Counted from the first letter of the stretch, positions 3,688 through 58,961 are shown. The stretch: DNA of 64,000 bases from a bacterium (GCA_030690305.1 JAUYHB010000020.1:23535-87534); one strand, 5' to 3'. Made by a program: numbers and translations. Notes: generated from the letters alone by a model not told the origin.

Positions 3688-3966
3688 TTATGAAACGTTG
3701 ACGTTTCGTGGAAGCCAATCGATAAGTTTTTTGCGATGCTGGTCAAGCGACCATAGGTTGCCGTGCTTAAAAAGCATTGAGTGTGCGCTTTGAAACTTTT
3801 TTAACAACTCGACAGAGGCGCGCGGATAGCCTTCGGGCATATTTTTATTATAGAATTCCAAAAAAGCAGAAAGAGATATCTGCATTTCGCTCGGTTTTAA
3901 TTCTTTCTCGCGTTTCATCTCATAATAATACCACATATCAATGGAAAAATCAATATTTAAGGCCAA
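3688..3966 (-). CDS. Hypothetical protein (92 aa)
   Basis: ORF of non-repetitive composition in a gap between genes; no recognisable motifs. Confidence 0.3.
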   Translation of the reverse strand: MALNIDFSIDMWYYYEMKREKELKPSEMQISLSAFLEFYNKNMPEGYPRASVELLKKFQSAHSMLFKHGNLWSLDQHRKKLIDWLPRNVNVS

Positions 3967-4021: not shown

Positions 4022-4615
4022 ATGCATACATACTCACCACAAAAATTCAGCATCCCGACGTTAAAAGGAATCTCGCAAAAGCAGATTGATATACACTTGG
4101 TCCTCTACGATGGATACGTCAAGCACGTCAACCTCATCCGCGAGCGGATACAGGAATTGAACACCGAGCCGGAAAAGAATAATTATCTTGCTTCGGAAAT
4201 CCGTCGTCGCTTCGCTTTTGAATTCAACGGCATGCGTTTGCACGAATTTTATTTCACATCATTTGAAGGAGGCTCCAAGGAAGCGAATACCGAAAGCGAA
4301 TTGGCAAAAAGCGTTTCCGAAAAATACGGAAGCTGGCAAAAGTTTATCGAGCACTTTACGACCGTCGGACTCACGCGCGGAAACGGCTGGTCAATTCTCT
4401 ACTACGACCCCATTGGCAAAACTCCTCATGTCATTTGGGTAGACGAACATCACATCGGGCACCTCGGTTCTTTGCCTGTAATTTTGGCTATGGATATGTG
4501 GGAGCATGCATATATGGTGGACTATCTCCCCGCACAAAAAAAAGAGCATATTACAGCCTTTCTTTCCAACATTAATTGGGAGACTGTGGAAAAAAGATTG
4601 AAAGAGGTCATTTGA
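4022..4615 (+). CDS. sodA: Fe/Mn superoxide dismutase
   Basis: 197 aa with Fe/Mn-SOD motifs (FNGMRLHEFYF, DMWEHAYMVDY). An extended -10-like tgtgataaaat lies upstream. Confidence 0.85.
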   Translation: MHTYSPQKFSIPTLKGISQKQIDIHLVLYDGYVKHVNLIRERIQELNTEPEKNNYLASEIRRRFAFEFNGMRLHEFYFTSFEGGSKEANTESELAKSVSEKYGSWQKFIEHFTTVGLTRGNGWSILYYDPIGKTPHVIWVDEHHIGHLGSLPVILAMDMWEHAYMVDYLPAQKKEHITAFLSNINWETVEKRLKEVI

Positions 4616-4715
4616 CTTCTTGCAAAACAAGACTATTCTACGAGTAGAAGAGAGAGTCTGTTTGAGAGTCTATTTTAAAGATTAAGTTCATTGCCAACCG
4701 AAAAAGGAGGGGGCT

Positions 4716-5459
4716 ATGAGGTATAGAACCTTTATGCTTTTTGTTATTGCAATTGTTACAATCTTTTCGCTCTGCGGATGCGCCGCAACCCAGATTGCAA
4801 TGGAGCACAAAAACCTTGATGTTCAGACAAAAATGTCTGACACCATCTTTCTGTCTCCCGAGGAATTGGGGGACAAAACCGTTTGGGTTGATTTGAAAAA
4901 CACGTCCGACAAAGACGTCGACCTTGGAGGAATCATTTCAACTCTTCAAGCAAGGGGCTATAGAATAGTCTCAAGTTACAAAGAGCCTCACAACCTAAGG
5001 CTTCAGGTTAATTTGCTACAAGCCGAAAAGACATCGCTTTCGGCCGCACAGCAATCGCTTCTCAACGGCTACGGCGGAGCGCTTGTCGGCGGAGTGGCCG
5101 GAGCATCTATCGGATCTCGCGGAGGATACGGAACTGCGGCTGCAGGAGGTATCGGCGGTGCACTTCTGGGAGGACTGATTGAAACAATGATAAACGCGAG
5201 CGTGAAGGACGTAACCTATATGATGGTTACGGACGTGCAGGTTTCCGCCCATTCGAATAAAAAAGTTTCTCAACAAATGGCCGGGAGCATAAGGCAAGGA
5301 ACATCGACCTCTCTGACGCAGAACGTCAGCGACGAGTCGGATTGGATAATTTACAGGACTCGGATAGTCAGCACGGCAAACAAGGTCAACCTGAAATTCC
5401 CTCAAGCATTACCGGAATTGGAGGCTGGCCTCAATCGGGTTATAGGAAATATTCTATAA
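4716..5459 (+). CDS. traT: TraT-family surface-exclusion / complement-resistance-like lipoprotein
   Basis: Signal peptide with an LCGC lipobox. Blocks recalled from F-plasmid TraT match (HKNLDVQTKMSDTIFL..., LKNTSDKDVDLGG, YMMVTDVQVS, YRTRIVSTANKVNLKF), with a central glycine-zipper. Strong RBS aaaggaggg upstream. Confidence 0.7.
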   Translation: MRYRTFMLFVIAIVTIFSLCGCAATQIAMEHKNLDVQTKMSDTIFLSPEELGDKTVWVDLKNTSDKDVDLGGIISTLQARGYRIVSSYKEPHNLRLQVNLLQAEKTSLSAAQQSLLNGYGGALVGGVAGASIGSRGGYGTAAAGGIGGALLGGLIETMINASVKDVTYMMVTDVQVSAHSNKKVSQQMAGSIRQGTSTSLTQNVSDESDWIIYRTRIVSTANKVNLKFPQALPELEAGLNRVIGNIL

Positions 5460-5480
5460 ACGACTCTCTCAAAAACTCAC

Positions 5481-5522
5481 AGCCCGTCTTGATATACATC
5501 AAGACGGGCTGTTTTTTTTTGG
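5481..5522 (+). terminator. Rho-independent terminator after the traT-like gene
   Basis: agcccgtcttg-atatacat-caagacgggct hairpin followed by 10 T. Confidence 0.7.
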
Positions 5523-5541
5523 AAATAAAGGGTATTAAACA

Positions 5542-5626
5542 CTTTGTTTCGACTTCGACTCGAACGCTATGAACATGAAGACATGCTCACACGCTTCTCG
5601 CTCGTCGAAATAAAAATAGAAAAATA
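5542..5626 (+). repeat. Intergenic repeat family, copy 2 (long form: ggtattaaacactttgtttcgacttcgactcg ... cgcttctcgctcgtcgaaataaaaa)
   Basis: 5' and 3' modules are conserved with the other copies; terminal 7 bp inverted repeat tttcgac/gtcgaaa. Confidence 0.6.
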
Positions 5627-7080
5627 AAAATATATAACACAGCGGTTACAAAACCGGACAAATGAATCACCGCGACGGAAAACGGAAGATTTGAAAAGAA
5701 ATGGGCAACGGCAAAAACATATGAAGAAATAATAGAAGTGAAAAGAGAAAATGGCGCTGCAAGCACGGGAGAAAATAAACCGACACACGCCGTCACAAAA
5801 CCGCTAAACATGATAAGCGGAGTAAGAGGGAGGACTAAAAGATTGACCGGAAACGCCATAAGCGGGAACTCCCCTCCCCGGTAAACAATCAAAGGTAAGA
5901 CAAGGAGTTGCGTGGCAATGGTTGCAACGGCAATTTCTTTAAACTGTGCCGGAATTTTTGAAAAATATTTTTCTATGAGGGGAGAAATTGCTATGAGCCC
6001 GAGTGTGGCAAGAAAAGACAACTGGAATGACGGGTCGAAAGCGGCGGTATAAGGATTGAAAAGTATCATAAGAAAAGCGACAAGACATAACAGCCGCACC
6101 GGAGCGGCATGCCGATAAAGCAATTTCCCAAGAATAACAACAAGGGCCATGAGCGCCGCGCGGACAATGCTCGCTTCAAAACCAACCATTGAAACGAACA
6201 GCAACACAAATGTCGACGCGAGGACATATGCGATTGTACGCGGAAGAAAAGAAGAGAAAAGCCAAAGGCTTGCCAGCACCACGAGAGAAATGTTGTAACC
6301 GGACAAAACGACAATATGAATAATGCCCGTTTTCCTGAATTCATCTTCAACATCTTTCGGAATAGACTGTTTTTCACCGAGCAACATTCCCGCAACCAGG
6401 GAAGCGTGCGGTTCCGGAAGAGTGCGGATAAGGCTTTGGGTGAATGTCTTTTTCATGGCAAGCAATTCCCGTCTTAAAGAGAAACTTGCACTCGGCGAAA
6501 CCGATTGTATCTGCACATTTTTTATCGTATACAGAATGCCGTCTTTTTTCAGATACGAAACATAATCGAAGGTAATTCCATATTCATTTTCAAATGACTT
6601 CGGCTTTTCAAGTATGCCTAAAAGGAAAACCGTATCGCCGTACTGAAACGATTGATATGGATCTGTGGTAACAAGAATTTTGTTTTTCTTGGAAAAATTG
6701 GCCGGAATTTCAGTCCCATTTATGTTCTGCGCGAGAAGGATAATCCGAGCGGTCGTGTCCCCTTCCCGCGGCTCATCAACGATAATCCCGGAAACGGAAA
6801 TACGTTCTGAAACAAAATCCGTGAAACGCTCTTGCGGAACAGCGAAATGGAAACGTAATGACCCGAAAGCAAATGCCAAAAAGAAAACTGCCAGAGAGGC
6901 AAGCGGCACAAAGATTTTTCCGCGCGTTTTCTTCAGAAAGAAAAAATACACAAAGAGATAAAAGGAAATGAGAAAGAAAAAACAAATTGAATAAATATCA
7001 AGAGAAACAAAAGAGCGGAGGAAAACTCCGCCCACAAAGCCGAAAAATAAACTATACAACCCTGCCGCCAAGCCCTTCAT
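5587..7080 (-). CDS. comEC: DNA internalization competence protein ComEC/Rec2 (DUF4131 + competence channel domain; lacks MBL domain)
   Basis: 497 aa polytopic membrane protein. The N-terminal OB/DUF4131-like region and multi-TM competence domain are typical of ComEC. Its start overlaps the rnhA stop. Confidence 0.75.
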   Translation of the reverse strand: MKGLAAGLYSLFFGFVGGVFLRSFVSLDIYSICFFFLISFYLFVYFFFLKKTRGKIFVPLASLAVFFLAFAFGSLRFHFAVPQERFTDFVSERISVSGIIVDEPREGDTTARIILLAQNINGTEIPANFSKKNKILVTTDPYQSFQYGDTVFLLGILEKPKSFENEYGITFDYVSYLKKDGILYTIKNVQIQSVSPSASFSLRRELLAMKKTFTQSLIRTLPEPHASLVAGMLLGEKQSIPKDVEDEFRKTGIIHIVVLSGYNISLVVLASLWLFSSFLPRTIAYVLASTFVLLFVSMVGFEASIVRAALMALVVILGKLLYRHAAPVRLLCLVAFLMILFNPYTAAFDPSFQLSFLATLGLIAISPLIEKYFSKIPAQFKEIAVATIATQLLVLPLIVYRGGEFPLMAFPVNLLVLPLTPLIMFSGFVTACVGLFSPVLAAPFSLFTSIISSYVFAVAHFFSNLPFSVAVIHLSGFVTAVLYIFIFLFLFRRARSV

Positions 7081-33321: not shown

Positions 33322-34098
33322 TTATTCTAGGCCTTTGAGGGTAAGAGAAATCGGACAATGATCGGAGCCCGTTACATCTTTCAAAATCTTTGTAGAAATA
33401 ACATTTTTTTCGGTATCCGGACTAATGAAAAAGTAGTCGATTCTCCACCCAACATTTCTTACTCTCGCAAAAGTTTTCATATCCCAGTATGTATACGCGT
33501 CTCGTGTTTCCGGATTTAATTTTCGGAAAATGTCTATGTATCCTTTGCTTATAACTTCGTCTATCCACGCCCTTTCTTCAGGAAGAAAGCCCGTATTTTT
33601 TTCGTTTTCTTTCGGCCGTGCAAGGTCTATTTCTTCATGGGCGGTATTTACATCACCGCAAAAAATAACTTTGAAGCCTTTGGCTCGAAGACGCTCAACA
33701 TAAGCAAGAAAGGCCTTGTAAAATTCAAGTTTAAACTTTATCCGATGAGGCCCTCCGCCTCCGTTAGGGAAGTAGGCATTTGAAATTGCGAAGTTTTTAA
33801 AAAGAGCGGTAACCATTCGTCCCTCTTGATCAAGTTCGGGAATTCCGAGACCGATTTCCACTTTTTCCGGCCTTTGTTTAGTGTAAAGAGCGACTCCGCT
33901 GTATCCTTTTTTTGTTTTTGCATGGTCAAAATACGCGGAAAAACCTTTCGGGTTCCGTACTTCTTCCGGTAATTGGTCGGGGTGCGCCTTTGTTTCTTGA
34001 AGACATAAGATATCGGGGCTCTCCTTTATAAGCCAGTCCCAACAACCTTTCTTGTGGCATGCCCTGATTCCATTTACGTTCCAAGAGATAATGTTCAT
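33322..34098 (-). CDS. xth: Exodeoxyribonuclease III (AP endonuclease)
   Basis: MNIISWNVNG start with ExoIII/EEP motifs (LCLQETK, GDVNTAHEEID, SDHCPI). Start at 34098, 14 bp after the integrase stop. Confidence 0.85.
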   Translation of the reverse strand: MNIISWNVNGIRACHKKGCWDWLIKESPDILCLQETKAHPDQLPEEVRNPKGFSAYFDHAKTKKGYSGVALYTKQRPEKVEIGLGIPELDQEGRMVTALFKNFAISNAYFPNGGGGPHRIKFKLEFYKAFLAYVERLRAKGFKVIFCGDVNTAHEEIDLARPKENEKNTGFLPEERAWIDEVISKGYIDIFRKLNPETRDAYTYWDMKTFARVRNVGWRIDYFFISPDTEKNVISTKILKDVTGSDHCPISLTLKGLE

Positions 34099-34111
34099 AG
34101 TTAATCTAAAA

Positions 34112-35041
34112 TTACTTTTGATTGCCCTTGTTATGGAATCGATGGTGCACATCACGAAGATGCTTATCCGTAACATGAGTATAGATTTGCGTTGTCCCAA
34201 TGTGCGCGTGGCCCAAAAGGGCTTGAACCGAGCGTAAATCTGCGCCGCTCTCAAGAAGATCAGTCGCAAAACTATGCCGGATGACATGCGGCGTTACTTT
34301 TTTGGTGATACCCGCCTTAATGGCATAGTATTTTACAATTCGTTCTACCGAACGTGAAGTAAGTCTTTTGGCATTAGTGTCGTGCCTGCTTACATGGATG
34401 AATAAGGCATCTTCCATGTCGGTTCGTTTTCCAAGGTACTGGCGTATTGCCTCCTTCGCACGCGGGGAAATAAAAACTACGCGCACTTTGTCTCCTTTTC
34501 CACGGATGGAAACTTCATCTTTCCTCAAATCAATATCTCGGGGAAGAGAGCAAAGTTCTGAAACACGAAGACCTGTGGAAAAAAGCAATTCAAGTATCGC
34601 CCTGTCCCGCAAATCCTTAACTGTTTTGGCATTTGGGGCTTCAATAAGGCGTTGCAGTTCATCCGCCGAAATGAGATCCAGGGAGCGTTCTCCCACTTTG
34701 GCAAGCTCTATACGATCCGGAGACAGAGACTGTATTTTCCGGCGCATAAGATACTTAAGGAAGGAACGAAGGGCAATAAGATAATAATTTTGGGTACGTT
34801 TTTTGAGCGTGTCGTAAGGGCCTCCGCTTTTCGTCTTTTTTCTGTTAAGAAAAAGGCGGTATTCCCTGATTAAATCGTCGGAAATATCTTCCGGTTGCTC
34901 GGTTCCGATAAAAATAAGAAAGGAGTCCAGGTAATGGGCGTAATTTTCAACTGTTTTGAGGCTTCTGCCTTTCTCGATTTCAAGATATTCGAGAAATTCT
35001 CGTTTGAGCTGGGTAAGCGTCATAACAACATTGTGCGACAT
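34112..35041 (-). CDS. xerC: Tyrosine recombinase, XerC/XerD family
   Basis: C-terminal catalytic motifs R...HSFATDLLESGADLRSVQALLGHAHIGTTQIYTHV (R-H-R-Y), with an N-terminal SAM-like domain. Confidence 0.8.
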   Translation of the reverse strand: MSHNVVMTLTQLKREFLEYLEIEKGRSLKTVENYAHYLDSFLIFIGTEQPEDISDDLIREYRLFLNRKKTKSGGPYDTLKKRTQNYYLIALRSFLKYLMRRKIQSLSPDRIELAKVGERSLDLISADELQRLIEAPNAKTVKDLRDRAILELLFSTGLRVSELCSLPRDIDLRKDEVSIRGKGDKVRVVFISPRAKEAIRQYLGKRTDMEDALFIHVSRHDTNAKRLTSRSVERIVKYYAIKAGITKKVTPHVIRHSFATDLLESGADLRSVQALLGHAHIGTTQIYTHVTDKHLRDVHHRFHNKGNQK

Positions 35042-41411: not shown

Positions 41412-42476
41412 ATGATTAAAAAATATAGGTACCTTATAGTCTTTTCTCTTATGCTTCTTGTCGCTGTAAGTATTTTCTTACTGTGGGACAGGCTGAATCA
41501 AAAATTAAATCCTGAAAAAGAAATCTCGGAAGGAGAAGTGAAGGAAACCGTAGCCGACTCAAATATACCGATTTCCCAAAGAGTAACATTTGAAAAAATT
41601 TCGGAACCATCACGGGCATTTCCCGAAGAAAGCGGCCTTAATGTTCCGGTATTGCCAATTCCTCAGCCAAAAATGGATAAGGTTACGGAAAGCGAGGGGT
41701 TTCTCCCGAAATATGTCACCTTTTTTGAAAATATAAAAAAGGCGGCAGAGGCCGTCCAAGAAGTCGTGGAGAGAAAAGTAAGCACACCAACATCTTCAAG
41801 CCCGGGAGCTTTGTCTTCGACATTTTCCGCGACCTCAACGCAGGAAATCAAATTAACGCTCACGGACGAAGAGTTCAACTATCTGTATCCTTCTTATTTT
41901 TTACAAGATCTTCAGGATAGCCAAAATCTTCTGAAAGAGTACGACCCGAGCTATGAACCGCTTCCGGAAATAAAAAACGATTCACACGTCCGTTTTGTTC
42001 AGGAGAAGATCGTTGTCGCACTGCTCTCCGCAAACATGCTGAACACCGATGAGGCACAGCGGTATATCACGACCATTCGTTTTACACTTCCCCAAATTCA
42101 ATTTTTTGAGCTTGAATTACGAAAGCAAGCTCTCGAAAATCGCTCCTTCGTGCAAAAAATGACTGATTTTCTCATCGCAAATTTTTCAAAAACAAAACAA
42201 GCACCTCAAGGAATCTACCTGGCGGGACTTGCTGACCAACTGAAGAATCTTTTGCTTCCCACGGCACAAGCGGGAGGAGGGGGACCGTGCGGGGAATGCC
42301 ACATATTACCCGTGTGTGTTCAAGAGGGCGTGGCAACCCCTATAGCAGGTACGGAAACCTGGACGGCTTTTTGCCAGTGCACAGGATGTTTGTATGGGAA
42401 CGGGTGTCTTGATAGATGTTTCCCCTCAGCTGCTATTTGGGATCCGACGACCGGAATTTGCGGGTGCGGAATATAG
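41412..42476 (+). CDS. Hypothetical signal-anchored protein with cysteine-rich C-terminal domain
   Basis: N-terminal TM. The last 65 aa contain 10 Cys (GPCGECHILPVCVQEG...CQCTGCLYGNGCLDRC...GICGCGI). Confidence 0.45.
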   Translation: MIKKYRYLIVFSLMLLVAVSIFLLWDRLNQKLNPEKEISEGEVKETVADSNIPISQRVTFEKISEPSRAFPEESGLNVPVLPIPQPKMDKVTESEGFLPKYVTFFENIKKAAEAVQEVVERKVSTPTSSSPGALSSTFSATSTQEIKLTLTDEEFNYLYPSYFLQDLQDSQNLLKEYDPSYEPLPEIKNDSHVRFVQEKIVVALLSANMLNTDEAQRYITTIRFTLPQIQFFELELRKQALENRSFVQKMTDFLIANFSKTKQAPQGIYLAGLADQLKNLLLPTAQAGGGGPCGECHILPVCVQEGVATPIAGTETWTAFCQCTGCLYGNGCLDRCFPSAAIWDPTTGICGCGI

Positions 42477-43983
42477 AAAAAACAAGCACTGATAATGAAA
42501 TGATAACGGGCCAGTCTCCAAAACGGGTATAGGGGGTTTTGGTCTCTGAAGGACTTACTTGAACAAAAAGAATCTGGTCTTCAAAAGATGACGATTCTTT
42601 TATCACATCCCCCCTTGAGTCAATAAAAAACGATTGGCCGCCGTTTGACGCCTGAAGAAACGGGCGGGCGGTTGAAACCGCCTGGAAACGGGCCATTGTT
42701 TTTATTTGACGAAGAAAAAAAGGTTCGTTGCGAAATACTATCTGGCTTGCCGAGTTAACAAGGATTTCCGCTCCTTTATTGGCAAGGGAACGATACAGTG
42801 AAGGGGACACTATCCCCGAGCACATGAGCGCACCGATTTTTGTATCCCCAAACGGCACCGGCATTTCAAGAACGTCTCCCGGAATTCGTGTTCTTGAAGA
42901 ACTGAAGCGTTCAAGCAATGTCTTGTCCTGAAAATACAAAAAGGCTTTAAGAATCACAGGGAGATATTCTCCCCCGGGAATGAGAAATGTTTTGTCTTGT
43001 ACAGAGAGAATTTCATTATTTTGGGTTCGATATATCATTCGCTCCTTCGTGCCGGATTCATATGAAACGACACTGCTCGTGATAATAAGGCCGTCAGTAT
43101 CTTTTTTAGAGAAAATGTTTTCAAGCAAAGTCTTGTTGGAGTCATCGGAAAACAGAGTACCCCCTTCCGGAAAAATTACTACGTCAGGCTGTTGGAACCC
43201 TTTTTCTTTGGTAATCGCCTTTTCCCATAGTGAACTGAAGTCGTCCTGACTCAAGGACCCTAGTAGTTTTTCTGTGTGAACAAGGGCTATATTAAGAGGT
43301 TTTTCTTGGGGTCCTTCCTGGAAAAACAAATTGGGGGCATAAAATAAAAAGAGAAGAAAGAGCGTGACGGGAAAAATAAGGCGAAACTCTTTTTTAAAAA
43401 TGCGGAAAAGAAAGAAGTTTATGCATACAACAAGAAAACTTAACCCGTATAAACCTACAAGGCGAGACCAAAAAACAATCGGGGTATCAATGAAAACATA
43501 CCCAAGGTCCCCAAATGTCCAGTGAGGTCCGAGTGTTGCGCCTGGTCCCCATGCAAATACGCCGAAAAGCACGGCTCGGAAATATTCGGAGAGTATCCAT
43601 AGAGACGGAAGGGTGATGAATGGAAATATTTTTAAAAACTTCAAAGAAAGCAGACCGAATAATCCGAAGGGGAGACTGACAAAAAGAGAGGTCCCGAGCC
43701 AGGCTATCGCAAATAAAGGCGCGGCTGACAGGGTGTTATGCACACCCGCCCAGCCTCCCGGGAAAGAATACAAGATAAAACGAAACGTAAGGGAGAAGAA
43801 AACAAAACCCAAAAGCCAACCCCCAAGAAACACCTCCCTTCGTGTGTTTTTGTTTTGATTTCCCGTTATTTCAAGAAAAACAAAAAAGGGAATCTGGGCA
43901 AGGAGCACTACCCACCAGAAATAAGGTCTTTCAAGTGAAAGAGAGAGAAGAAGCCCGGAGAGAAGAGGTAAAAACCATTTCAT
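42433..43983 (-). CDS. lnt: Apolipoprotein N-acyltransferase-like protein (Lnt; polytopic N-terminus + CN-hydrolase domain)
   Basis: Multiple N-terminal TM helices followed by a carbon-nitrogen hydrolase-like domain (VVIFPEGG ... GALMCSG). Confidence 0.55.
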   Translation of the reverse strand: MKWFLPLLSGLLLSLSLERPYFWWVVLLAQIPFFVFLEITGNQNKNTRREVFLGGWLLGFVFFSLTFRFILYSFPGGWAGVHNTLSAAPLFAIAWLGTSLFVSLPFGLFGLLSLKFLKIFPFITLPSLWILSEYFRAVLFGVFAWGPGATLGPHWTFGDLGYVFIDTPIVFWSRLVGLYGLSFLVVCINFFLFRIFKKEFRLIFPVTLFLLFLFYAPNLFFQEGPQEKPLNIALVHTEKLLGSLSQDDFSSLWEKAITKEKGFQQPDVVIFPEGGTLFSDDSNKTLLENIFSKKDTDGLIITSSVVSYESGTKERMIYRTQNNEILSVQDKTFLIPGGEYLPVILKAFLYFQDKTLLERFSSSRTRIPGDVLEMPVPFGDTKIGALMCSGIVSPSLYRSLANKGAEILVNSASQIVFRNEPFFLRQIKTMARFQAVSTARPFLQASNGGQSFFIDSRGDVIKESSSFEDQILFVQVSPSETKTPYTRFGDWPVIISLSVLVFSIFRTRKFRSSDPK

Positions 43984-50104: not shown

Positions 50105-52081
50105 TTGATAATAATGTTTAAAAGAGAGAATAAAAAAATCTTCCTGAAACTCCTGTCATCCTTCTTACTGTTGCTTCTTGTCCTTGTTCCTTTCTTTGTA
50201 AATGCACAACAAGCCTCGACTCAGGAAAGCGGGGAAAAGTGTGGCTGGACTAACATGGCCGGATGTATAGAGATGGCGTGGGGCAAACTTGTAGGCTCCA
50301 TAGCGGATCTTATTCTCAGTCTTGCGGCATTTGTTACGTTTGCGGCAGGAACATTATTGGACTTCGTCATTAAATACACAATTGTTGATATGTCTGCGAA
50401 TGTAGGTGTAATTACCGGGATCAGCACTGCTTGGGCGGCGTTACGAGACCTTGCGAACATTTTCTTCATATTCATTCTCCTTTACGCGGCTATTGCTACC
50501 GTCCTTCAGATGGGAGGAGTAAATACAAAAAAAATAATCACCCGGGTGATTATTATTGCCCTTCTCATAAACTTCAGTCTTTTCTTCACGCGGGTGATGA
50601 TTGATGTGTCCAACGCCCTTTCGGTTGGCTTTTATAATGCCATTTTAAGTGGTGTTTCCGGAAGTGACGGCATTTCATATGCATATATGCAGAAACTTCT
50701 GCTCACAACCGTTTATCAACCCGGTAGTGGTGCTGGTGCTGACCTTACAAAGTTTCCGGAGGTAGGGTTTTTGGGTGCAATATTTTTCCTTGTAGCCGCC
50801 TTTGTTTTTCTTGCCGCAGCCGTAATGTTCATCACCCGTTTTGTTGTGCTTGTTTTCCTCATGATCACTTCTGCCCCTGCTTTTGCAGCTATGGCCCTCC
50901 CTAATGACAAATATTCCGGAGATTGGTGGAAAGCTTTGTGGGACCAACTAATTTTTGCCCCTGTTTTCTTTATTCTTTCATGGGCAACTCTTCAGGTGCT
51001 TGATGGTGCACTGGGCACCTTGGGCGCAGGAGCAAGCTTAAAAGACGCCATTGCAGGGAGTATGGATGCGAACGGAAACAAAACTGCGATTCCGGGTGCA
51101 GCCGCTGTGTTTGCCAACTTCGGAATCGCAATAACATTCATGATTGTTACTCTTACCATTTCTAAGAAACTTGCCGGAAGTGCCGGAAAAGGAATTCAGA
51201 GTTTTGTAGGTGGGGTTGTTGGTGGAGCAACTATTGGCGGAGCCGCGTGGCTTGGCAGGCGAACATTGGGTTGGGCTGGTGACAGATTAAGCCAAAACAC
51301 TTCCTTACAAGGAGCTGCAGGTCAAAATAATCTTGCGGGGAAAGCTGCTCGATTAACTCTTCAGGGTACCAAAAACTTATCGAGGGCAAGTTTTGATGCG
51401 CGCAATATAAAAACACTCGGTATTGGTGAAACTATTTCTAGAGAAGGTAGTTTGGGTAAAGGAAAAGGCCAGGGTGGTTATGTTACAAGTAAGGACAGCC
51501 AAAGAGAAAGGGTACTTAAGGATGACCAGCTAAGGGTTGCTGGAGCGAGAACAGCAATTGTTTCGACTGGTTTGGCGCCTACAGCCACAGGTGCGGATAT
51601 TCTTGCTATGCAACAACAAGTGAGCAAAATGAGTACAAACGATATTGAAAATACAAGCTTAGCAAATTTGCAAAGAAGTGAGTTTGCCACAGGATTATCA
51701 CACAGTCAAATGGAAGACATTAAGAAAAGCACTAAGTTTACACAAACAGAAAGTAATTTGATTGAAAATAGACGCGATGCAGGACTTGTCAATCTTTGGA
51801 ATGCATCTGGATCAGCAGGACTGTTCGCGGTTACAAAGCGTGCTAAACCAAATGAGATGGCAGAACTTCCGCAACCAATCCTTGTTGATCCTAACTTCGC
51901 ACAACATTTAAGTGTCCCTGCGTTACAGCGCATAACTAATGAAGGGACTCTTGGTTTCGTCGATAAAGCATTGGTAAGAGCTAATATTATTGCTGCAGCC
52001 GCACTTCCGACTAACATAGGGAATGTCCAGCTTCAGAAAACGGCATCGTGGCTTGCGAGCCCGCAGGGCAGCATCTTCTAA
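50105..52081 (+). CDS. VirB6/TrbL-like polytopic membrane protein (type IV secretion component candidate)
   Basis: Signal peptide plus 6 or more TM helices and a long hydrophilic C-terminal tail, as in VirB6/TrbL. Sits in the cluster with VirB4 and PrgI homologs. Confidence 0.5.
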   Translation: MIIMFKRENKKIFLKLLSSFLLLLLVLVPFFVNAQQASTQESGEKCGWTNMAGCIEMAWGKLVGSIADLILSLAAFVTFAAGTLLDFVIKYTIVDMSANVGVITGISTAWAALRDLANIFFIFILLYAAIATVLQMGGVNTKKIITRVIIIALLINFSLFFTRVMIDVSNALSVGFYNAILSGVSGSDGISYAYMQKLLLTTVYQPGSGAGADLTKFPEVGFLGAIFFLVAAFVFLAAAVMFITRFVVLVFLMITSAPAFAAMALPNDKYSGDWWKALWDQLIFAPVFFILSWATLQVLDGALGTLGAGASLKDAIAGSMDANGNKTAIPGAAAVFANFGIAITFMIVTLTISKKLAGSAGKGIQSFVGGVVGGATIGGAAWLGRRTLGWAGDRLSQNTSLQGAAGQNNLAGKAARLTLQGTKNLSRASFDARNIKTLGIGETISREGSLGKGKGQGGYVTSKDSQRERVLKDDQLRVAGARTAIVSTGLAPTATGADILAMQQQVSKMSTNDIENTSLANLQRSEFATGLSHSQMEDIKKSTKFTQTESNLIENRRDAGLVNLWNASGSAGLFAVTKRAKPNEMAELPQPILVDPNFAQHLSVPALQRITNEGTLGFVDKALVRANIIAAAALPTNIGNVQLQKTASWLASPQGSIF

Positions 52082-52082
52082 A

Positions 52083-52748
52083 ATGATGAACAATCAACTC
52101 AGAGAGAAAATAAAAAATGCACTTCAAAAATTCCCTAAGGAATTGAAATATGAAGTGACCTCCGAGGAGGCTTTTGATGCCTTCCTCGAGATAGTTAAAA
52201 AACATGGAATAGAAAAAGAGAAGACTGACAGATTTTCTGATGCTGTTTATTCGGTTGCATACGGTGTTGAGCCTTTAGAAACACTTACCGCACAAATTGA
52301 AAAGGCGTTGGACGGAAATATTCAAAAAGTACAACCAATAGCGGAGGACGTGAGAAAAATGATAATTACTGAGAATCTAAAAAATTATCTGGCGGCTCAA
52401 AAAACAGGCATGGCGTCTGGTATAGAAAAAATAGGTGGGCAGTACGTGTTCCCAGAAACAGGAAACATGATAAAAACTACCTCGGTGTCTGAGCAGACAA
52501 GCAACAGGTCTGTAATGGCAAACGGGGAAGTGATAAATAAGACGCAGGTTCTTCATGACATTGAAAATCCTCAAAAGGTTACTCCCGCATTTGAACATCT
52601 TCCTTCCGGAGTGGCTGGGGGGAACATCATCGACGACAAGCTCAACAAAATCGTTAAACTGCCACGGCAAGAAAAATATGATGAAAATGGAGGCCCTAAA
52701 CCAGAAGGACAGATTCAGTCGGACCCTTATCGGGAACCGATTGAGTAG
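52083..52748 (+). CDS. Hypothetical protein (T4SS-like cluster)
   Basis: ORF directly following the VirB6-like gene. Start taken at MMNNQ immediately after the upstream stop. Confidence 0.35.
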   Translation: MMNNQLREKIKNALQKFPKELKYEVTSEEAFDAFLEIVKKHGIEKEKTDRFSDAVYSVAYGVEPLETLTAQIEKALDGNIQKVQPIAEDVRKMIITENLKNYLAAQKTGMASGIEKIGGQYVFPETGNMIKTTSVSEQTSNRSVMANGEVINKTQVLHDIENPQKVTPAFEHLPSGVAGGNIIDDKLNKIVKLPRQEKYDENGGPKPEGQIQSDPYREPIE

Positions 52749-52763
52749 CGGGATTTTTTAACA

Positions 52764-53198
52764 ATGCAGTTTCAAACCCCACAATTCATTGACGTTGAGG
52801 ACAAGATTTTCGGTCCTCTGACGTTTAAACAGTTCGTATATCTTGCCGGAGGGGCAGGGCTTGTTGTCGTTTTGTGGACGTTGTTACCTCCCTTTTTTGC
52901 CGTTCTTTTAGGATTGCCGGTTATCGCTCTTTCACTGGCGCTTGCATTTTATACCGTAAACAACAAGCCTTTTGTAAATATCATGGAATCGTTTTTTTCG
53001 TATGTTTCCGGTAGTAAATTATATGTGTGGAAAAAAGAAGCGAAAAAGGCAATGCCTTCGGAACCAAAAGAAGGTGGAACCGACCTGGGACTTTACGTCC
53101 CCCGCCTTTCGGACAGTAAGTTAAAAGACCTTACCTGGAGTCTTGGTGTCAAAGACCAGACGCAACCGAAAGAAAAGAGTTCTGTTATTGGGCAATAG
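52764..53198 (+). CDS. PrgI-family (VirB3-like) T4SS membrane protein
   Basis: IDVEDKIFGPLTFKQFVYLAGGAGLVVVLW followed by a second TM matches the PrgI/TcpE-like family found beside VirB4 in Gram-positive-type T4SS. Confidence 0.55.
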   Translation: MQFQTPQFIDVEDKIFGPLTFKQFVYLAGGAGLVVVLWTLLPPFFAVLLGLPVIALSLALAFYTVNNKPFVNIMESFFSYVSGSKLYVWKKEAKKAMPSEPKEGGTDLGLYVPRLSDSKLKDLTWSLGVKDQTQPKEKSSVIGQ

Positions 53199-53326
53199 GT
53201 GAATAGACGGTATTACCATAGAAGTTTAATATCCCCGCAGATTATTGCGATTTGGGACAAACCTTCGAGCATAAAATGAGTCTGTCTGGCTTGCTCTGAG
53301 GTTTAATACCTCTTATTATTATACCA

Positions 53327-53971
53327 ATGGCTATCCAGGCACAGGCAACTCAAGACTTTGTTCCAATTAGTGAAATCAAAGACGGCATCGTCATTCTAAA
53401 GGACGGGTCATTGCGCTCAATAGTGATGGTTTCATCTCTTAATTTCGCGCTCAAAAGCGAGGAGGAAAAAAATGCCATCATTTCACAGTTTCAGAATTTT
53501 CTCAATTCACTGGATTTTTCCATGCAAATATTCATACAGTCCCGACGACTCGATATTCGGCCATATCTCGCGCTTATCGAACAGCGCTACAAGGAACAGG
53601 TAAATGAGCTCATGCGGATTCAGATTCAAGAATATATCGAGTTTATAAAAAACTTTACCGAAACAACGAATATTATGACGAAAAATTTCTTTATCGTTGT
53701 GCCGTATACCCCGGCTTTTCTTCAAACAAACAAATCAACGAGAGATTTGCTTAATTTCGGAAAAACAAAGTCTCAAAAAGAAACCCAAAAAACCAATGAG
53801 GCCGTCTTTGAGGAAAACCGCACCCAGCTTGAACAACGCGTTGCCGTCGTTGAACAAGGCCTTGTGCGCTGCGGCATCCGAAGCGTGCTCTTAGGCACGG
53901 AAGAGGTGATTGAGTTGTATTACAAAATTTTCAATCCCGGCGAAACCGAGAAAGCAATACAAACATCGTAA
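53327..53971 (+). CDS. VirB4/TraE-family ATPase, N-terminal domain fragment (separate ORF)
   Basis: TQDFVPISEIKDGIVILKDGSLRSIVMV ... NAIISQFQNFLNSLDFSMQIFIQSRRLDIRPYL matches the conserved N-terminus of Gram-positive VirB4 homologs (PrgJ/TcpF-like). It ends at TAA 53969-53971, 1 nt before the next ORF's ATG. Confidence 0.55.
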   Translation: MAIQAQATQDFVPISEIKDGIVILKDGSLRSIVMVSSLNFALKSEEEKNAIISQFQNFLNSLDFSMQIFIQSRRLDIRPYLALIEQRYKEQVNELMRIQIQEYIEFIKNFTETTNIMTKNFFIVVPYTPAFLQTNKSTRDLLNFGKTKSQKETQKTNEAVFEENRTQLEQRVAVVEQGLVRCGIRSVLLGTEEVIELYYKIFNPGETEKAIQTS

Positions 53972-53972
53972 T

Positions 53973-55784
53973 ATGGGGTTACTTGATTTTTTACAACCGA
54001 AAAAGAAAGAGGAGGAGGTCTCTATGATACTGCCGCAAGACGTATATGACGCGGGGGCTCTTGAATTAAAAGACATTATCGCTCCAAGCGCCTTGAAAGT
54101 CGGCACGAAAGACCTTAATCTTGGAGGAAAATCCGTCCGAAGTTTTTTTGTTATTTCTTATCCGCGATTTCTCGCGGAAAGTTGGTTTTCTCCGATCATT
54201 AACCTCGACAGGGTATTTGATGTCTCGATTTTCATTCATCCCATTGAAACCGCAACCATTCTAAGGCAGTTTCAAAAGAAAGTAGCGGAGGTTCAGAGCC
54301 AAATTCATGAACGCGAAGAAAAAGGCCTTGTCCGCGACCCGAAGCTTGATACCGCATATCGCGACTTGGAAGAATTGCGTGACCGACTGCAGCAAGCACA
54401 GGAGAAACTTTTCGATGTCGGATTATATATTTCAATATATGGAGAAAACGATGAAGACCTCAACAAAGCGGAAGGCCAGGTGAAGTCCATTCTTGAGTCA
54501 AAACTTGTATATGTAAAACCGGCGCTTTTCCAGCAAGAACAGGGGTACAAAAGCGTGTTGCCCGTAGGAACCGACCTTTTGGGAGTTCATTCGAAGTTTA
54601 ATTCCGCTCCTTTATCGAGTCTTTTTCCTTTTATCTCATTTGACCTGACTTCGGACAAAGGAATTTTGTATGGGATAAACAGGCATAACTCGAGTCTTGT
54701 GTTGTTTGACCGATTCAGCCTTGAAAATTACAACTCAATCACGTTCGCGAAATCAGGCGCGGGAAAGTCATATGCCACCAAACTTGAGATTCTTCGGTCA
54801 CTGATGTTCGATACTTCAATCATTGTCATCGACCCCGAGCGTGAATATGAATATCTCGCACAGGCCACCGGAGGAAGATACTTTAAAATATCTCTCACTT
54901 CGGAACACCACATTAACCCTTTTGATCTCCCCGTCCCTCAGGAAGGGGAATCGGGAGCAAATGTACTGCGCTCAAACATCATAAACCTTGTCGGACTGTT
55001 TAGAATTATGCTTGGAGGACTTACCTCAGAAGAAGACGCGGTTATTGACCGGGCAATTTCCGAAACATATGCACTTAAGGATATAAGCCCGAATTCGGAT
55101 TTTTCCGCCGTGACACCGCCTCTTTTGTCAGATTTTGAGCTTGTGTTGTCGGGTATGGAAGGGGGAGAGTCCCTGGCGCAACGATTAAGTAAGTACACAA
55201 AAGGAACGTGGTCAGGTTTCATCAACCAGCCGACCAACATTGACATAAACAAGAAATTTATCGTTTTCTCGGTTCGCGACATGGAAGATGAGCTGAAACC
55301 CATTGCCATTTACATCATCACCCACTACATATGGAATGCCATCAGAAAAGAAATCAAAAAACGCCTCCTCGTTATTGATGAGGCGTGGTGGATGATGAAA
55401 TCGGATGACACCGCGTCGTTTTTGCTTGGCCTTACCAAGCGCGGAAGAAAATATTATCTTGGCGTCGCGACCATTACCCAAGACGTTGACGACTTCCTTG
55501 GGTCTCAATACGGAATGCCCATCGTAACAAACTCTTCAATTCAGCTTCTTCTCAAACAAGCCCCGCCGGCCGCCGAGAAGTTGCAGAAAATTTTTAATCT
55601 TACAGACGAGGAAAAGTATCTGCTTCTTGAGTCTGACGTTGGGGAAGGGATATTCTTTGCAGGACTTAAGCACGTCGCCATAAAAATCATCGCCTCGTAT
55701 ACCGAAGACCAGATTATTACTTCCGACCCCTCACAAATACTTGCCATTGAAAAGTCGAAAAAGGATCTGGAGGTAAATTCTTAG
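53973..55784 (+). CDS. virB4: VirB4/TraE-family type IV secretion ATPase (ATPase portion)
   Basis: Walker A FAKSGAGKS and Walker B LLVIDEAWWM; conserved VirB4 middle and C-terminal regions. It starts in a different reading frame from the upstream fragment. Confidence 0.75.
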   Translation: MGLLDFLQPKKKEEEVSMILPQDVYDAGALELKDIIAPSALKVGTKDLNLGGKSVRSFFVISYPRFLAESWFSPIINLDRVFDVSIFIHPIETATILRQFQKKVAEVQSQIHEREEKGLVRDPKLDTAYRDLEELRDRLQQAQEKLFDVGLYISIYGENDEDLNKAEGQVKSILESKLVYVKPALFQQEQGYKSVLPVGTDLLGVHSKFNSAPLSSLFPFISFDLTSDKGILYGINRHNSSLVLFDRFSLENYNSITFAKSGAGKSYATKLEILRSLMFDTSIIVIDPEREYEYLAQATGGRYFKISLTSEHHINPFDLPVPQEGESGANVLRSNIINLVGLFRIMLGGLTSEEDAVIDRAISETYALKDISPNSDFSAVTPPLLSDFELVLSGMEGGESLAQRLSKYTKGTWSGFINQPTNIDINKKFIVFSVRDMEDELKPIAIYIITHYIWNAIRKEIKKRLLVIDEAWWMMKSDDTASFLLGLTKRGRKYYLGVATITQDVDDFLGSQYGMPIVTNSSIQLLLKQAPPAAEKLQKIFNLTDEEKYLLLESDVGEGIFFAGLKHVAIKIIASYTEDQIITSDPSQILAIEKSKKDLEVNS

Positions 55785-55787
55785 ATT

Positions 55788-56102
55788 ATGTTTAATGAAA
55801 CAAAACGGGTGGGGATGGCACATTTTTTAGTTGCCGGTATCGCTGACGGGTTGCAATTTGTAGTTAATTTCCTTCATTTGTTCCCCGTTATTGGAACTAT
55901 TCTTGCCTCAATGGTGTCTTTTGCCATCACCTTGGGAACATTTTTGACATTTGGTATTTTTTTCGGAACGTGGTTTCCTGTCACCTTTTTTGGGGAAACA
56001 ATTCCCGTCATCAACGGCCTTCCTTTCTGGACTGCCCGCGTCATGTTTGAAGCCGCAAAAGAGCGCGCACCTGCGGCAGCACCGGTGCCAAATAAAAAAT
56101 AA
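55788..56102 (+). CDS. Small membrane protein (hypothetical; T4SS-like cluster)
   Basis: Three hydrophobic helices; no homology recognised. Confidence 0.35.
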   Translation: MFNETKRVGMAHFLVAGIADGLQFVVNFLHLFPVIGTILASMVSFAITLGTFLTFGIFFGTWFPVTFFGETIPVINGLPFWTARVMFEAAKERAPAAAPVPNKK

Positions 56103-56138
56103 GTGTGGAAAAGTTGACAAAACATTGTGATACAATAA

Positions 56139-57275
56139 ATGCATATGCGTAGTATTTCTCTGATTAAAGTGTCTTTTGTGGTGTTTGTGTGTGCAATGTC
56201 TGCTTTTTCGTTTGCTCAAACTTCCGATCCGTATCAGCTGAGCCCGGAGGAATTGGCCCTTACACAAACAGGAAGCACGACGTCTTTTACTTCTACAACA
56301 AACAGTCAGTACCTGGGTGAACAGTTACAGAAACTCCAAGACGCGATTCAAAGCCAGTATGGGTCAATGATAAGTATCAGAAGCAAACCGGATGCGCCAA
56401 AACCTTTTGAGAAAATTATTGTGGAAATTGAAGGGTATAGCGTTAATCTCAACAGTTCCTATATCACTTGGTCCGTGAACGGAGTGGCACGGAAGGCGGG
56501 ACCGGGAGCAAAGAGCGTTGAACTTGTTTTGGGAGGGCTAGGAAGTGTTACCGTTGTTTCCGCAACAATTGAAGCCGATGGAGGAATAAATATTGAGAAA
56601 GAAATAACATTACGGCCGGTGGACGTTGACCTTGTTTGGGAGGCGCAGTCATACACACCTCCTTTCTATAAAGGCAAGGCTTTAAACGCGCCTCAGGGAA
56701 GTGTGGTTATAACCGCCATTCCATACGTTGTTGAGGGAGGAGTAAGGATAAATTCAGCAAATCTTATTTACAAATGGAGTAAGGACAATACGGTGCAAGG
56801 AAGTTTGTCGGGGTCTGGAAGAAATACGTTTGTTTTCAATGGCTCAATCATTTCAAGGCCCGTTACAATTTCCGTTGAAGTAACTTCACCCAAAAGCAAT
56901 ATAAAAGCGGTTAAAAAAATAACCATTAAGCCGTCTCAGGCAAAAGTGCTTCTTTACGAGATCAACCCACTATATGGTGTAGGATACGCGAGCGCGATCG
57001 GAAAAGAGTATGAGATGAGAGGAAAGGAACTGACGCTTATCGCTACTCCGTACTTTTTCAGCAGCCAAGACAAGGCGGGTGATAATTTAAGTCATGTCTG
57101 GTCTCTTAATAACAAGAAAATTGATGGCGAGGCGAACAAAAACGTCATTACATTCCGAAGGCCTGAAACCGTCGGAGTTTCGCAAATTGCCCTTGGTGTA
57201 GAGAGTGGGAATAAAATTCTTCAGTCCGCAAGAAACACCGTTCTGCTTAAATTTAGCGAGGAAAAAAGCGAGTAA
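56139..57275 (+). CDS. Secreted hypothetical protein with internal beta-rich repeats
   Basis: Signal peptide (AFSFAQTSD); repetitive Ig-like segments. Confidence 0.4.
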   Translation: MHMRSISLIKVSFVVFVCAMSAFSFAQTSDPYQLSPEELALTQTGSTTSFTSTTNSQYLGEQLQKLQDAIQSQYGSMISIRSKPDAPKPFEKIIVEIEGYSVNLNSSYITWSVNGVARKAGPGAKSVELVLGGLGSVTVVSATIEADGGINIEKEITLRPVDVDLVWEAQSYTPPFYKGKALNAPQGSVVITAIPYVVEGGVRINSANLIYKWSKDNTVQGSLSGSGRNTFVFNGSIISRPVTISVEVTSPKSNIKAVKKITIKPSQAKVLLYEINPLYGVGYASAIGKEYEMRGKELTLIATPYFFSSQDKAGDNLSHVWSLNNKKIDGEANKNVITFRRPETVGVSQIALGVESGNKILQSARNTVLLKFSEEKSE

Positions 57276-57284
57276 GATAAGAAA

Positions 57285-57713
57285 ATGGAAAAAATCTTTA
57301 ATTTAATAAAGAAAATATGGACAGTGGGACTTGTGTTTCCTTTGTTTGTTTTCGCACAAAGTGAGTACACTCTCTTAGAGCCCCTCACAAATCCTTCCGG
57401 CGGAACAATCAATTCGACTTCGGATCTTGGGAACTATCTTCAGTTTGCTTTTCAATTTACTATCGGCATCACAGGAGTGCTCGCGGTTATTATGATTATC
57501 CTTGGAGGAATCCGCTATCTCTCTACCGACGCAATCAGCGGCAAAGAAGAGGGCAGGAGCATGATTACAGGGGCTATAGGTGGACTTTTACTCGCAATTC
57601 TTTCTTGGCTTATCCTTAATACAATCAATCCGGACCTGTTGAAGTTTAATGTGATACCTTCGTCAAATTCTTCCGGTGGGGGAGGGGGCGGAGGGGGAGG
57701 AGGAGGTTTTTAA
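57285..57713 (+). CDS. VirB2/TrbC-like pilin candidate with poly-Gly C-terminus
   Basis: Signal peptide ending FAQSE, two hydrophobic helices and a C-terminal GGGGGGGGGGGF. The architecture resembles conjugative pilins. Confidence 0.4.
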   Translation: MEKIFNLIKKIWTVGLVFPLFVFAQSEYTLLEPLTNPSGGTINSTSDLGNYLQFAFQFTIGITGVLAVIMIILGGIRYLSTDAISGKEEGRSMITGAIGGLLLAILSWLILNTINPDLLKFNVIPSSNSSGGGGGGGGGGGF

Positions 57714-57725
57714 TTTAACACAATC

Positions 57726-58961
57726 ATGCTTAAAAAATTTCTCATACCCGTCATTATTTTTGTTATTATCGCAGGAGCACTGGGAGCATATTTTTTCTTT
57801 TTACAAAACAAAAATCCCAATAATACTTTTTTTGGAGACCTTTTTCCTTTCGGACAAGGCCCTGATTTGGGAAATGGCTCAACTGTGACAGAGAGTGGTG
57901 GGGAAAATGGTAACGGTAATGAAGAAGCGAATATTTTACCTGCCCCTCAGATACGCAAAATAACGGGGGAACAGGTGGCAGGGGTAACCCTTATTGACGC
58001 GGCTAGCACAACGGTTATCCGTTACATTGAAAGGGGTACGGGACATATATACGAAGCAGACGCCCTTACACTTGCTTTGAAAAAGATATCAAATACAACT
58101 ATCCCGAAAATTTATGAAGCTTTGTGGACCGGGAAAGGAGATTCGGTCATTCTTCGATATTTGAAAGACGACAACGAAACGATTGAGACATTTTATGCAA
58201 AGCTTTCAAAAAATTCTATCTCCGGAGCGGATGGAAATTCGGTCTCGGACCTTGAGGGAAGTTTTCTTCAAACCGACATAAGAGAAATTGCAGTTTCTCC
58301 GGATAAAAACAGTATTTTTTCCTTGGTTGCTTCAGTGACGAGTGGAAGCGGAGTCATTTCACGGCCCGATGGAACACAGAAACAAACTTTTCCTCTTCCC
58401 CTTAAAGAATGGGTTGTCTCATGGCCGACACAGGACACAGTTCTTCTTACAACAAAACCGAGCGCGGAGGTTGGAGGTTATGTATACACGTTTAACACCT
58501 CGACCGGAGAGCTGGGAAAAATCACAGGGGAAGTGGGTGGCATAACGGCAAGCGCAGACCAGTCTCTGAACTATCTGCTTTACTCCGAGAGCAAACAAAA
58601 AAGCTTCTTCCTGAATTTACTCAATATTGCTGACAAAACAATTACCAGGTCTCCGTCCCAAACCCTACCCGAAAAGTGTGTGTGGAGCAAGAAAGAGAAA
58701 TCTGTTATTTACTGTGCGGTCCCTAAAACAATACCAAGCAATGACTATCCGGACGCGTGGTACCAGGGGATTGTATCTTTTTCGGATAAAATATTGAAAA
58801 TAGATTTTGAGAATAACACAACTTCCGTAATCGCCGACACGAAAGAGGCGGTAGGGGAAGAGGTTGACGCAGTTTCACTTTCTCTCAATGCAGAAGAAAA
58901 CTATCTTGTCTTTCTGAATAAAAAAGATTCCTCTTTGTGGGGAATTCAAATTACTCCTTAG
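57726..58961 (+). CDS. Signal-anchored hypothetical extracellular protein
   Basis: N-terminal TM (IPVIIFVIIAGALGAYFFF) with a long beta-rich ectodomain. Confidence 0.4.
   Translation: MLKKFLIPVIIFVIIAGALGAYFFFLQNKNPNNTFFGDLFPFGQGPDLGNGSTVTESGGENGNGNEEANILPAPQIRKITGEQVAGVTLIDAASTTVIRYIERGTGHIYEADALTLALKKISNTTIPKIYEALWTGKGDSVILRYLKDDNETIETFYAKLSKNSISGADGNSVSDLEGSFLQTDIREIAVSPDKNSIFSLVASVTSGSGVISRPDGTQKQTFPLPLKEWVVSWPTQDTVLLTTKPSAEVGGYVYTFNTSTGELGKITGEVGGITASADQSLNYLLYSESKQKSFFLNLLNIADKTITRSPSQTLPEKCVWSKKEKSVIYCAVPKTIPSNDYPDAWYQGIVSFSDKILKIDFENNTTSVIADTKEAVGEEVDAVSLSLNAEENYLVFLNKKDSSLWGIQITP

Follow-up and report, generated by a model that had tools for sequence, protein, structure and literature searches.

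A chromosomal TraT-family lipoprotein gene in a narrow lineage of Parcubacteria, bacteria regarded as lacking an outer membrane

The literature places TraT in the outer membrane and treats surface exclusion as a trait of Gram-negative bacteria only (PMC11733297), and bacteria of the candidate phyla radiation (CPR) are proposed to have no outer membrane (PMC12102498 and its references). What, then, would a traT gene do in the chromosome of a CPR bacterium? The question is raised by a stretch of 64,000 nucleotides (GCA_030690305.1 JAUYHB010000020.1:23535-87534; hereafter the window), in which an original prediction had placed the gene for a TraT-like surface-exclusion lipoprotein between the two halves of a split ComEC, and had thought a role in modulating DNA entry or envelope contact conceivable. 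Judged from its sequence, this gene encodes a genuine full-length TraT-family lipoprotein, with lipidation predicted. The account that we favor, and hold to be probable, is that the gene was imported from a diderm into a narrow Parcubacteria lineage and has been kept as a functional chromosomal ring-forming surface shield.

The TraT profile of Pfam (PF05818) matches the product from end to end, with protein residues 33-247 covering profile positions 1-214 of 214 at E 2.6e-62 and 210.8 bits (cutoff 31). A phmmer search against PDB sequences matched the three cryo-EM entries of TraT (9fs5, 9e2v and 9fsm) at E of about 6e-42 to 1e-41, F-plasmid TraT 9fs5 at E 5.8e-42. The alignment to 9fs5 joins residues 22-247 of the open reading frame (ORF) to chain residues 1-223 and sets Cys22 opposite the lipidated Cys1; over the whole mature protein, beginning with this Cys, identity to the TraTs of F and pKpQIL in these three structures is 39-41%. 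The motif blocks on which the prediction had relied are all found in the protein, aligned with F TraT: beside the lipobox region, LKNTSDKD has IKNTSDKD as its counterpart, YMMVTDVQ has YTMITDVQ, and ANKVNLKF is identical in both proteins. Similarity spans the whole length of the protein. A match confined to the glycine zipper, the outcome that had been named as counting against a TraT identity, is not what the alignments show. NCBI already lists this very sequence as 'MAG: complement resistance protein TraT [Patescibacteria group bacterium]' (P0001), MAG standing for metagenome-assembled genome.

The start of the protein has the features of a type II (lipoprotein) signal peptide, with positive charge in the n-region and, after a hydrophobic core some 15 residues long, a lipobox. 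In the homolog alignments Cys22, Ala23 and Ala24 are identical in 80 of 80 sequences and Gly21 is found in at least 90%; glycine-zipper residues G118, G120, G125 and G129 are conserved, as are A221, N222, V224, N225 and L226 of the C-terminal ANKVNL. The mature part comprises an N-terminal amphipathic helix, a beta-sandwich core, a glycine-zipper helix pair and a long beta-hairpin.

An AlphaFold2 (AF2) monomer model built with 80 homologs as input reached a mean predicted local distance difference test (pLDDT) score of 82.8 and has the fold of a TraT protomer, with a helix at 2-30, a beta core, helices at 127-134 and 149-159 and a hairpin of strands 165-194 and 198-224, the glycine-zipper part being modelled at low confidence. 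When this model was searched against PDB with Foldseek, the top three matches were TraT structures (E 9e-23 to about 1e-22, template modelling score 0.60-0.65) and all significant matches were to TraT, the first match outside the family having E 0.01. The low pLDDT at 126-154 of the monomer would fit a segment that folds only within a membrane-embedded oligomer. The beta-hairpin and the core align to F TraT with zero indels, and it is these two parts that form the decamer interfaces in solved TraT (PMC11733297).

Within the family, the protein stands apart from the F-plasmid type. The NCBIfam equivalog model for F-plasmid-type TraT (NF010291 / PRK13731), the subgroup of conjugative surface exclusion and serum resistance, gave 178.8 bits, below its curated cutoff of 445, which by this rule sets the protein outside that functional subgroup, and the gene has none of the setting of a tra operon: there is no adjacent traS or traD and no conjugative element, and its neighbors are genes for a superoxide dismutase (SOD), ComEC, RNase H, RecJ, ribosomal proteins and glycolysis. 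It differs from F and pKpQIL traT in lying outside a tra operon and a plasmid, in that an F-type pilus and a TraN partner are not evident, and in the presumed lack of an outer membrane in its host; its product shares the predicted fold with theirs and, by analogy, likely also works by physical interference, as a ring anchored through lipid and helices.

The framing of TraT as classically a plasmid protein, which came with the prediction, is dated. Seddon et al. (2025) found 104 of 399 TraT homologues to be chromosomal, across seven Gram-negative phyla and in variable contexts unrelated to conjugation, and proposed that traT was chromosomal originally and was co-opted several times by plasmids (PMC11733297). 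With such chromosomal TraTs (Acidithiobacillus, Nitrosomonas, Rheinheimera and others) the protein shares family, a length of about 245 residues, a lipobox-Cys-Ala-Ala start, glycine-zipper helices and the C-terminal ANKVNL, and its gene likewise stands alone in a variable context unrelated to conjugation. A chromosomal TraT without tra genes is therefore already known; what differs is the host, since CPR bacteria lie outside the published range of Gram-negative (diderm) phyla, and the position of the protein in a clade of its own on a long branch. Glycine-zipper outer-membrane lipoproteins of the SlyB, YcfJ and YiaD kind also have a lipobox and a pair of Gly-rich helices embedded in the membrane, and the product has a weak YiaD_Gzip_OmpA match (E 0.0011) while JGI labels P0003 and others 'SlyB'. 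Here the likeness is confined to the glycine zipper, and the beta-sandwich, the beta-hairpin and both termini are specific to TraT.

The host is an ultra-small bacterium of the Parcubacteria/Paceibacteria within the CPR. Elongation factor G (EF-G) of its genome (locus L006) has best matches at 78-87% identity, and all matches that carry organism names are Patescibacteria, Parcubacteria, Paceibacterota, Taylorbacteria, Nomurabacteria or other candidate CPR. The gene content of the window is as usual for such bacteria, with rpsG, rpsL, rpmB and genes for RecJ, PGK, TIM, NusA, trigger factor, DnaA and DnaN, together with a PilB/PilC pair, a membrane H+-pyrophosphatase and a VirB4-like ATPase. The presence of TraT had been called unusual should the host prove to be a CPR organism; this is now the case, with traT chromosomal among housekeeping genes.

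An artefact of assembly or binning, by which the gene of a co-occurring Gram-negative bacterium came to sit in this genome, could be suspected from the facts that TraT is otherwise known from diderms (PMC11733297) and that MAGs can be chimeric, but its probability is next to nil. CPR core genes stand on both flanks of traT on one contig, and independent assemblies from different samples agree: the matching arrangement is found in NCBI MAG GCA_034375565.1 and in the Logan assembly of run SRR13727534. An ortholog with 81% identity (L001) lies in a syntenic region of MAG H32-bin035 from Hainich groundwater, where the gene order is rpsG-rpsL-M50-rpmB-MBL ... ComEC-N-RNaseH-RecJ-HIT-PGK-TIM (MBL, the metallo-beta-lactamase part of ComEC), and orthologs with 61% identity adjoin a CPR-specific gene for a 76-residue protein on two more contigs (L005 and L088). 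No diderm sequence exceeds about 51% identity. The composition of the gene is that of its host, its GC content (0.48), its GC at third codon positions (0.51) and its codon usage all falling inside the range of 23 other window genes, and a local rise in GC coincides with the Gly/Ala-rich segment of traT. We conclude that traT truly belongs to this CPR genome. The same comparison, which had been proposed as a check on the prediction, gives no signal of recent import, and a recent foreign origin was rejected on this ground.

How did a CPR genome come to hold the gene? Relatives were sought by motif-based scans of GTDB species-representative genomes and then of metagenomes; such scans would miss very divergent CPR TraTs, and rarity in CPR is a lower-bound statement. 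One of the 100 confirmed relatives in GTDB belongs to Patescibacteria, the other 99 coming from Pseudomonadota, Nitrospirota, Desulfobacterota-type taxa, Campylobacterota (Sulfurimonas) and Verrucomicrobia, and 1 of 95 metagenomic relatives lies on a CPR-type contig. A neighbor-joining (NJ) tree of 256 TraTs unites the five distinct CPR sequences in one clade (99 of 100 bootstraps) on a long branch. The nearest TraTs outside CPR are chromosomal ones of environmental Gram-negative bacteria, at 45-51% identity (Acidithiobacillia, of the Pseudomonadota, about 50%), and plasmid TraTs reach at most 44% identity to the CPR protein. Two related genomes have no TraT at the locus, L173 (EF-G 83%) and L174 (EF-G 81%), and EF-G, S7 and M50 place both as outgroups to the pair formed by the window and L001. 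On the simplest history, a diderm gene passed once, and long ago, to the ancestor of a small group of Parcubacteria, and its composition has since fully ameliorated; the phylogeny, suggested along with the prediction as a test for horizontal acquisition, agrees with this in giving a single CPR clade whose identity to diderm TraTs does not exceed about 51%. Carriage by phage was considered and dropped, the one viral contig (36% identity) being judged irrelevant. A full-text literature search for TraT together with Patescibacteria returned no paper that by title or abstract is about such a protein.

The gene is intact and under selection. Between the window and L001 the TraT proteins are 81% identical overall and 87% in the mature part, a level that equals ribosomal protein S7 and lies above SOD, RecJ, PGK, RNase H and both ComEC genes. 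The proportion of nonsynonymous differences (pN) is 0.099 (0.073 in the mature part) against a proportion of synonymous differences (pS) of 0.474, a pN/pS ratio of about 0.15-0.2, which indicates a functional gene under purifying selection. A neutral or decaying passenger of an old transfer, with no present function, might be expected if an outer-membrane protein were useless without an outer membrane, and the very narrow distribution would suit it. We nevertheless find this improbable, given the low pN/pS, the intact reading frame in all five CPR sequences, the identity matching that of S7 for the same genome pair, and the retention of lipobox, glycine zipper, Shine-Dalgarno sequence, promoter and terminator. 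CPR genomes are small and streamlined, and dead genes are unlikely to persist in them.

Identity, fold, selection and genomic setting of the gene are shown; on the preferred account of a retained surface shield, lipidation, oligomerisation, localisation and blocked process would follow those of solved TraT by analogy. In two structural papers TraT of diderms is a homodecameric 'cork', whose subunits are each anchored in the outer membrane by three amphipathic helices and the triacylated Cys (PMC11733297). Chen et al. (2025) stress how seldom proteins of the outer membrane have transmembrane helices; they found specific partner proteins to be without evidence and physical interference most likely (PMC12658005). 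In the CPR host the precursor would be exported through Sec and lipidated at Cys22, after which the signal peptide would be cleaved; the lipid anchor and three amphipathic helices would insert in the outer face of the sole membrane, and the subunits would form a decameric 'champagne-cork' ring as in F and pKpQIL TraT, with the beta-sandwich ring facing outward. Such a ring may act as a passive barrier against contact-dependent surface processes, as proposed for F TraT, candidates for the blocked process being pilus or type IV secretion system (T4SS) docking, pore-forming attack and some phages. Transfer to a single-membrane cell is plausible because anchoring by helices and lipid would need no BAM or Lol machinery, and TraT could plausibly be among the few outer-membrane proteins that work in a cell without an outer membrane.

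The window also encodes a homolog of apolipoprotein N-acyltransferase (Lnt), so that a lipoprotein maturation pathway is at least partly encoded. Lnt makes triacylated lipoproteins and is typical of diderms and Actinobacteria, and its occurrence in a CPR genome may be of interest.

Several points weigh against the shield. Lgt and LspA were not seen within the 64-kb window. The single-membrane status of the host rests on the CPR literature (PMC12102498 and its references); in the 64 kb of its genome that were covered, no outer-membrane biogenesis genes were seen. The oligomeric state and the membrane topology are carried over to a CPR envelope from solved TraTs, and peptidoglycan, possibly with an S-layer, lies outside the membrane, so the ring may be out of reach of its targets. 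Even in diderms, chromosomal TraTs have been assigned no function (PMC11733297). As to the donor, the sister group in the NJ tree (P0012, P0017, P0021 and P0030) has 0 of 100 bootstraps, and a donor lineage drawn from it was dropped; P0021 itself has an ordinary chromosomal context.

The presence of an intact, selected traT in bacteria presumed to have no outer membrane suggests that anchoring by helices and lipid makes TraT portable between envelope types, and that the core function of chromosomal TraTs is independent of outer-membrane partners such as OmpA or lipopolysaccharide. It would offer a natural test case for whether TraT needs an outer membrane. For CPR biology, in which contacts of the cell surface with hosts are central to the lifestyle, it adds a rare and clearly imported envelope protein.

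Table 1. Coordinates of traT, its parts and signals, and the other features discussed, counted from the first nucleotide of the window
Feature	Coordinates	Strand	Basis or remark
traT ORF	4716..5459	+	247 aa, ATG start
Predicted type II (lipoprotein) signal peptide, MRYRTFMLFVIAIVTIFSLCG	4716..4778	+	Lipobox L-C-G ending before Cys22; sequence features, homolog alignment
Mature TraT	4779..5459	+	226 aa plus stop; Pfam, PDB matches, AF2 and Foldseek
Glycine-zipper segment, aa 118-162	5067..5201	+	Corresponds to alpha3/alpha4 membrane helices of solved TraT; alignments to F TraT
Promoter-like site, TTGACT-16 nt-TATTCT	4612..4639	+	Consensus scan; function predicted
Shine-Dalgarno sequence AAGGAGG	4704..4710	+	5 nt 5' of the ATG; read from sequence
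Intrinsic terminator	5479..5520	+	15-bp stem and 4-nt loop (5479..5512), then T8
SOD gene (Fe/Mn superoxide dismutase-like)	4022..4615	+	Directly 5' of traT; Sod_Fe_C, E 2e-22
Gene for 76-aa hypothetical protein	3688..3918	-	ORF call (mechanical ORF reaches 3966), family search
Separate ComEC MBL gene, own N-terminal membrane helix	2648..3502	-	Lactamase_B; TIGR00361 ComEC_Rec2 positions 423-663
ComEC N-terminal gene (comEC-N), DUF4131 and Competence channel domain	5587..7080	-	PF13567, PF03772, TIGR00360
Lnt homolog	42433..43983	-	LNT_N and CN_hydrolase

The traT gene has signals of its own. The strong ribosome-binding site and the terminator named in the original prediction were both found (Table 1), and a promoter-like element (TTTACT...TACTGT / TATTCT) also stands 5' of traT in L001 and L005 despite their different neighbors. 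The terminator is placed between the convergent traT and comEC-N and can act on both strands; in L001 the hairpin is retained through changes that preserve pairing, TCTTGAT/ATCAAGA having become TTTTGGTT/AACCAAAA. These elements support traT as its own transcription unit.

Does the position between the ComEC halves mean that TraT works with ComEC? The split itself was rightly recognized: one gene has DUF4131 and the Competence channel domain, and the MBL domain has a gene to itself, which fits the C-terminal third of the ComEC/Rec2 model and shows dN/dS 0.11 against L001. ComEC is divided into a channel gene and an MBL gene in all four related genomes (window, L001, L173 and L174), and both halves look selected. 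The placing of traT needs one correction, as it is convergent with comEC-N but not adjacent to the MBL gene, the genes for the 76-residue protein and SOD intervening.

The content of the gap between the halves differs in each of the four genomes, from 1 to 9 genes, and marks a local hot spot of gene turnover. In the window it reads hyp76-SOD-TraT. In L001 it reads TraT-PRTase-2 hypotheticals-dCMP deaminase-hypothetical-peptidase S51-SOD, seven unrelated genes and SOD parting traT from comEC-N. In L174 it holds SOD alone, and in L173 it holds HIT, tRNA_bind, NUDIX and three genes without a Pfam match; TraT is absent from both. Yet other neighbors flank traT in L088 and L005. The SOD of TraT-less L174 is 48% identical to that of the window, so that the presence of SOD at the locus is independent of traT.

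A coupling of TraT to ComEC, with TraT gating or modulating the uptake of DNA or the contacts of the envelope in natural transformation, is therefore very improbable. It could appeal to the place of traT inside the gap in both the window and L001, to the bidirectional terminator common to traT and comEC-N, and to the low synonymous divergence of traT (given below), which would fit spread by transformation. The TraT-less L173 and L174, however, keep the split ComEC, the gap varies in every genome examined, and traT, convergent with comEC-N, has its own promoter and no part in the transcript of that gene. The block that parts the two genes in L001 is a further objection, and a tblastn search of about 150 diderm TraT loci found no ComEC homolog adjoining traT. 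We conclude that the gap is a variable insertion spot and traT one of its variable passengers, not one half of a functional pair; the suggested role in DNA entry tied to ComEC is not borne out, and the picture of ComEC and competence is unchanged.

The 76-residue protein was considered as a partner of TraT and rejected. It carries the motif HGNLWSLDQHRKKLIDWLPR and matches no Pfam family, and its gene divergently adjoins traT in L005 and L088. Its family, however, comprises 59 clusters, the few named ones all Patescibacteria, Paceibacterota or Pacebacteria; it is far wider than CPR TraT, is not confined to TraT genomes and is absent from diderm TraT loci.

The gene may also have moved among related CPR. 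Its pS between the window and L001 (0.47, about 178 synonymous sites, standard error about 0.04) is below the 0.68-0.81 of ten flanking orthologs, which include highly expressed ribosomal protein genes. It sits at different sites, between SOD and comEC-N in the window and between the MBL gene and the seven-gene block in L001 (4714..5457), and hence on opposite sides of SOD. The window signal peptide is 19% identical to that of L001, which is 71% identical to that of L005; this could reflect a mosaic or recombination breakpoint near the lipobox, or fast evolution of signal peptides. In L088 a short MBL fragment is 73-78% identical to both other genomes, and its TraT only 61-67%. Because of the low pS, the differing sites, the signal-peptide mosaic and the contrast between MBL and TraT in L088, we see a hint, a lead from a small sample of sequences, that a promoter-to-terminator traT cassette was exchanged among related CPR after their divergence.

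That TraT serves in the single membrane as a contact-blocking shield against T4SS or pilus docking, pore-formers or phage, and in addition passes among CPR as a self-contained cassette, is a tentative extension that we rate well below the shield itself; its cassette part stems from the anomalously low synonymous divergence and the different insertion points in one variable locus. No integrase or transposase is found within 20 kb of traT. Weak inverted repeats surround the traT unit (window 4650..4684 and 5450..5473; L001 4607..4624 and 5540..5557); at 18-24 nt and 75-83% complementarity, with sequences that differ between the genomes, they are probably due to chance, though they could be what is left of cassette ends. 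Bounding terminal repeats and mobility genes were dropped as candidates for this cassette, these weak and unconserved repeats being all that was found.

It is also conceivable, if rather unlikely, that TraT has been re-purposed in CPR episymbiosis, as exclusion or immunity against the T4SS of siblings or as a membrane-inserting ring at the contact with the host, and spreads as a cassette. The window does encode a VirB4-like T4SS ATPase, VirB4 of a monoderm-type class occurs in 2,417 of 3,035 Patescibacteria assemblies (Quinonero-Coronel et al. 2025, PMC12102498), and the reduced pS, the shift of traT across SOD and the conservation of the cassette from promoter to terminator amid changing neighbors would all agree with it. 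Yet T4SS are near-universal in CPR and the gene is found in a handful of CPR genomes; the T4SS cluster lies 48 kb away with no link to traT, other causes are possible for the low pS, and the cassette has neither flanking mobility genes nor clear terminal repeats. The shield remains the reading that we prefer.

Beside these main points, some features of the locus and the wider window deserve record. In the window SOD lies on the same strand directly 5' of traT, and by tblastn a canonical 201-residue FeSOD has the same position in at least eight alphaproteobacterial loci of Geminicoccaceae type (L024, L025, L028, L046, L071, L072/L146, L076/L152 and L119/L120). A joint transfer of SOD and TraT was rejected: the CPR SOD is 33-40% identical to the alphaproteobacterial FeSODs, in the C-terminal domain only, other TraTs lie closer to the CPR clade than those of Geminicoccaceae type, and L174 has the CPR-type SOD without TraT. 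The repeated adjacency may be chance.

The absence of other plasmid genes nearby, as the original prediction had it, stands for about 20 kb on either side of traT, but farther out the window has the VirB4-like ATPase and a tyrosine recombinase. The former (53910..55784; P-loop_TraG, AAA_10 and TraC_F_IV matches), the window's only T4SS-type gene, is 48 kb from traT, in a plus-strand run of large genes without Pfam matches (50105..59000) beside YidC and just 5' of dnaA/dnaN, a run that probably represents the cluster of CPR-type T4SS genes reported in PMC12102498. The XerC/D-type tyrosine recombinase gene (34112..35041, minus strand) overlaps the start of an Exo_endo_phos nuclease gene (33322..34287, minus strand), and four tRNA genes lie near it, at 28.7-31.3 kb.

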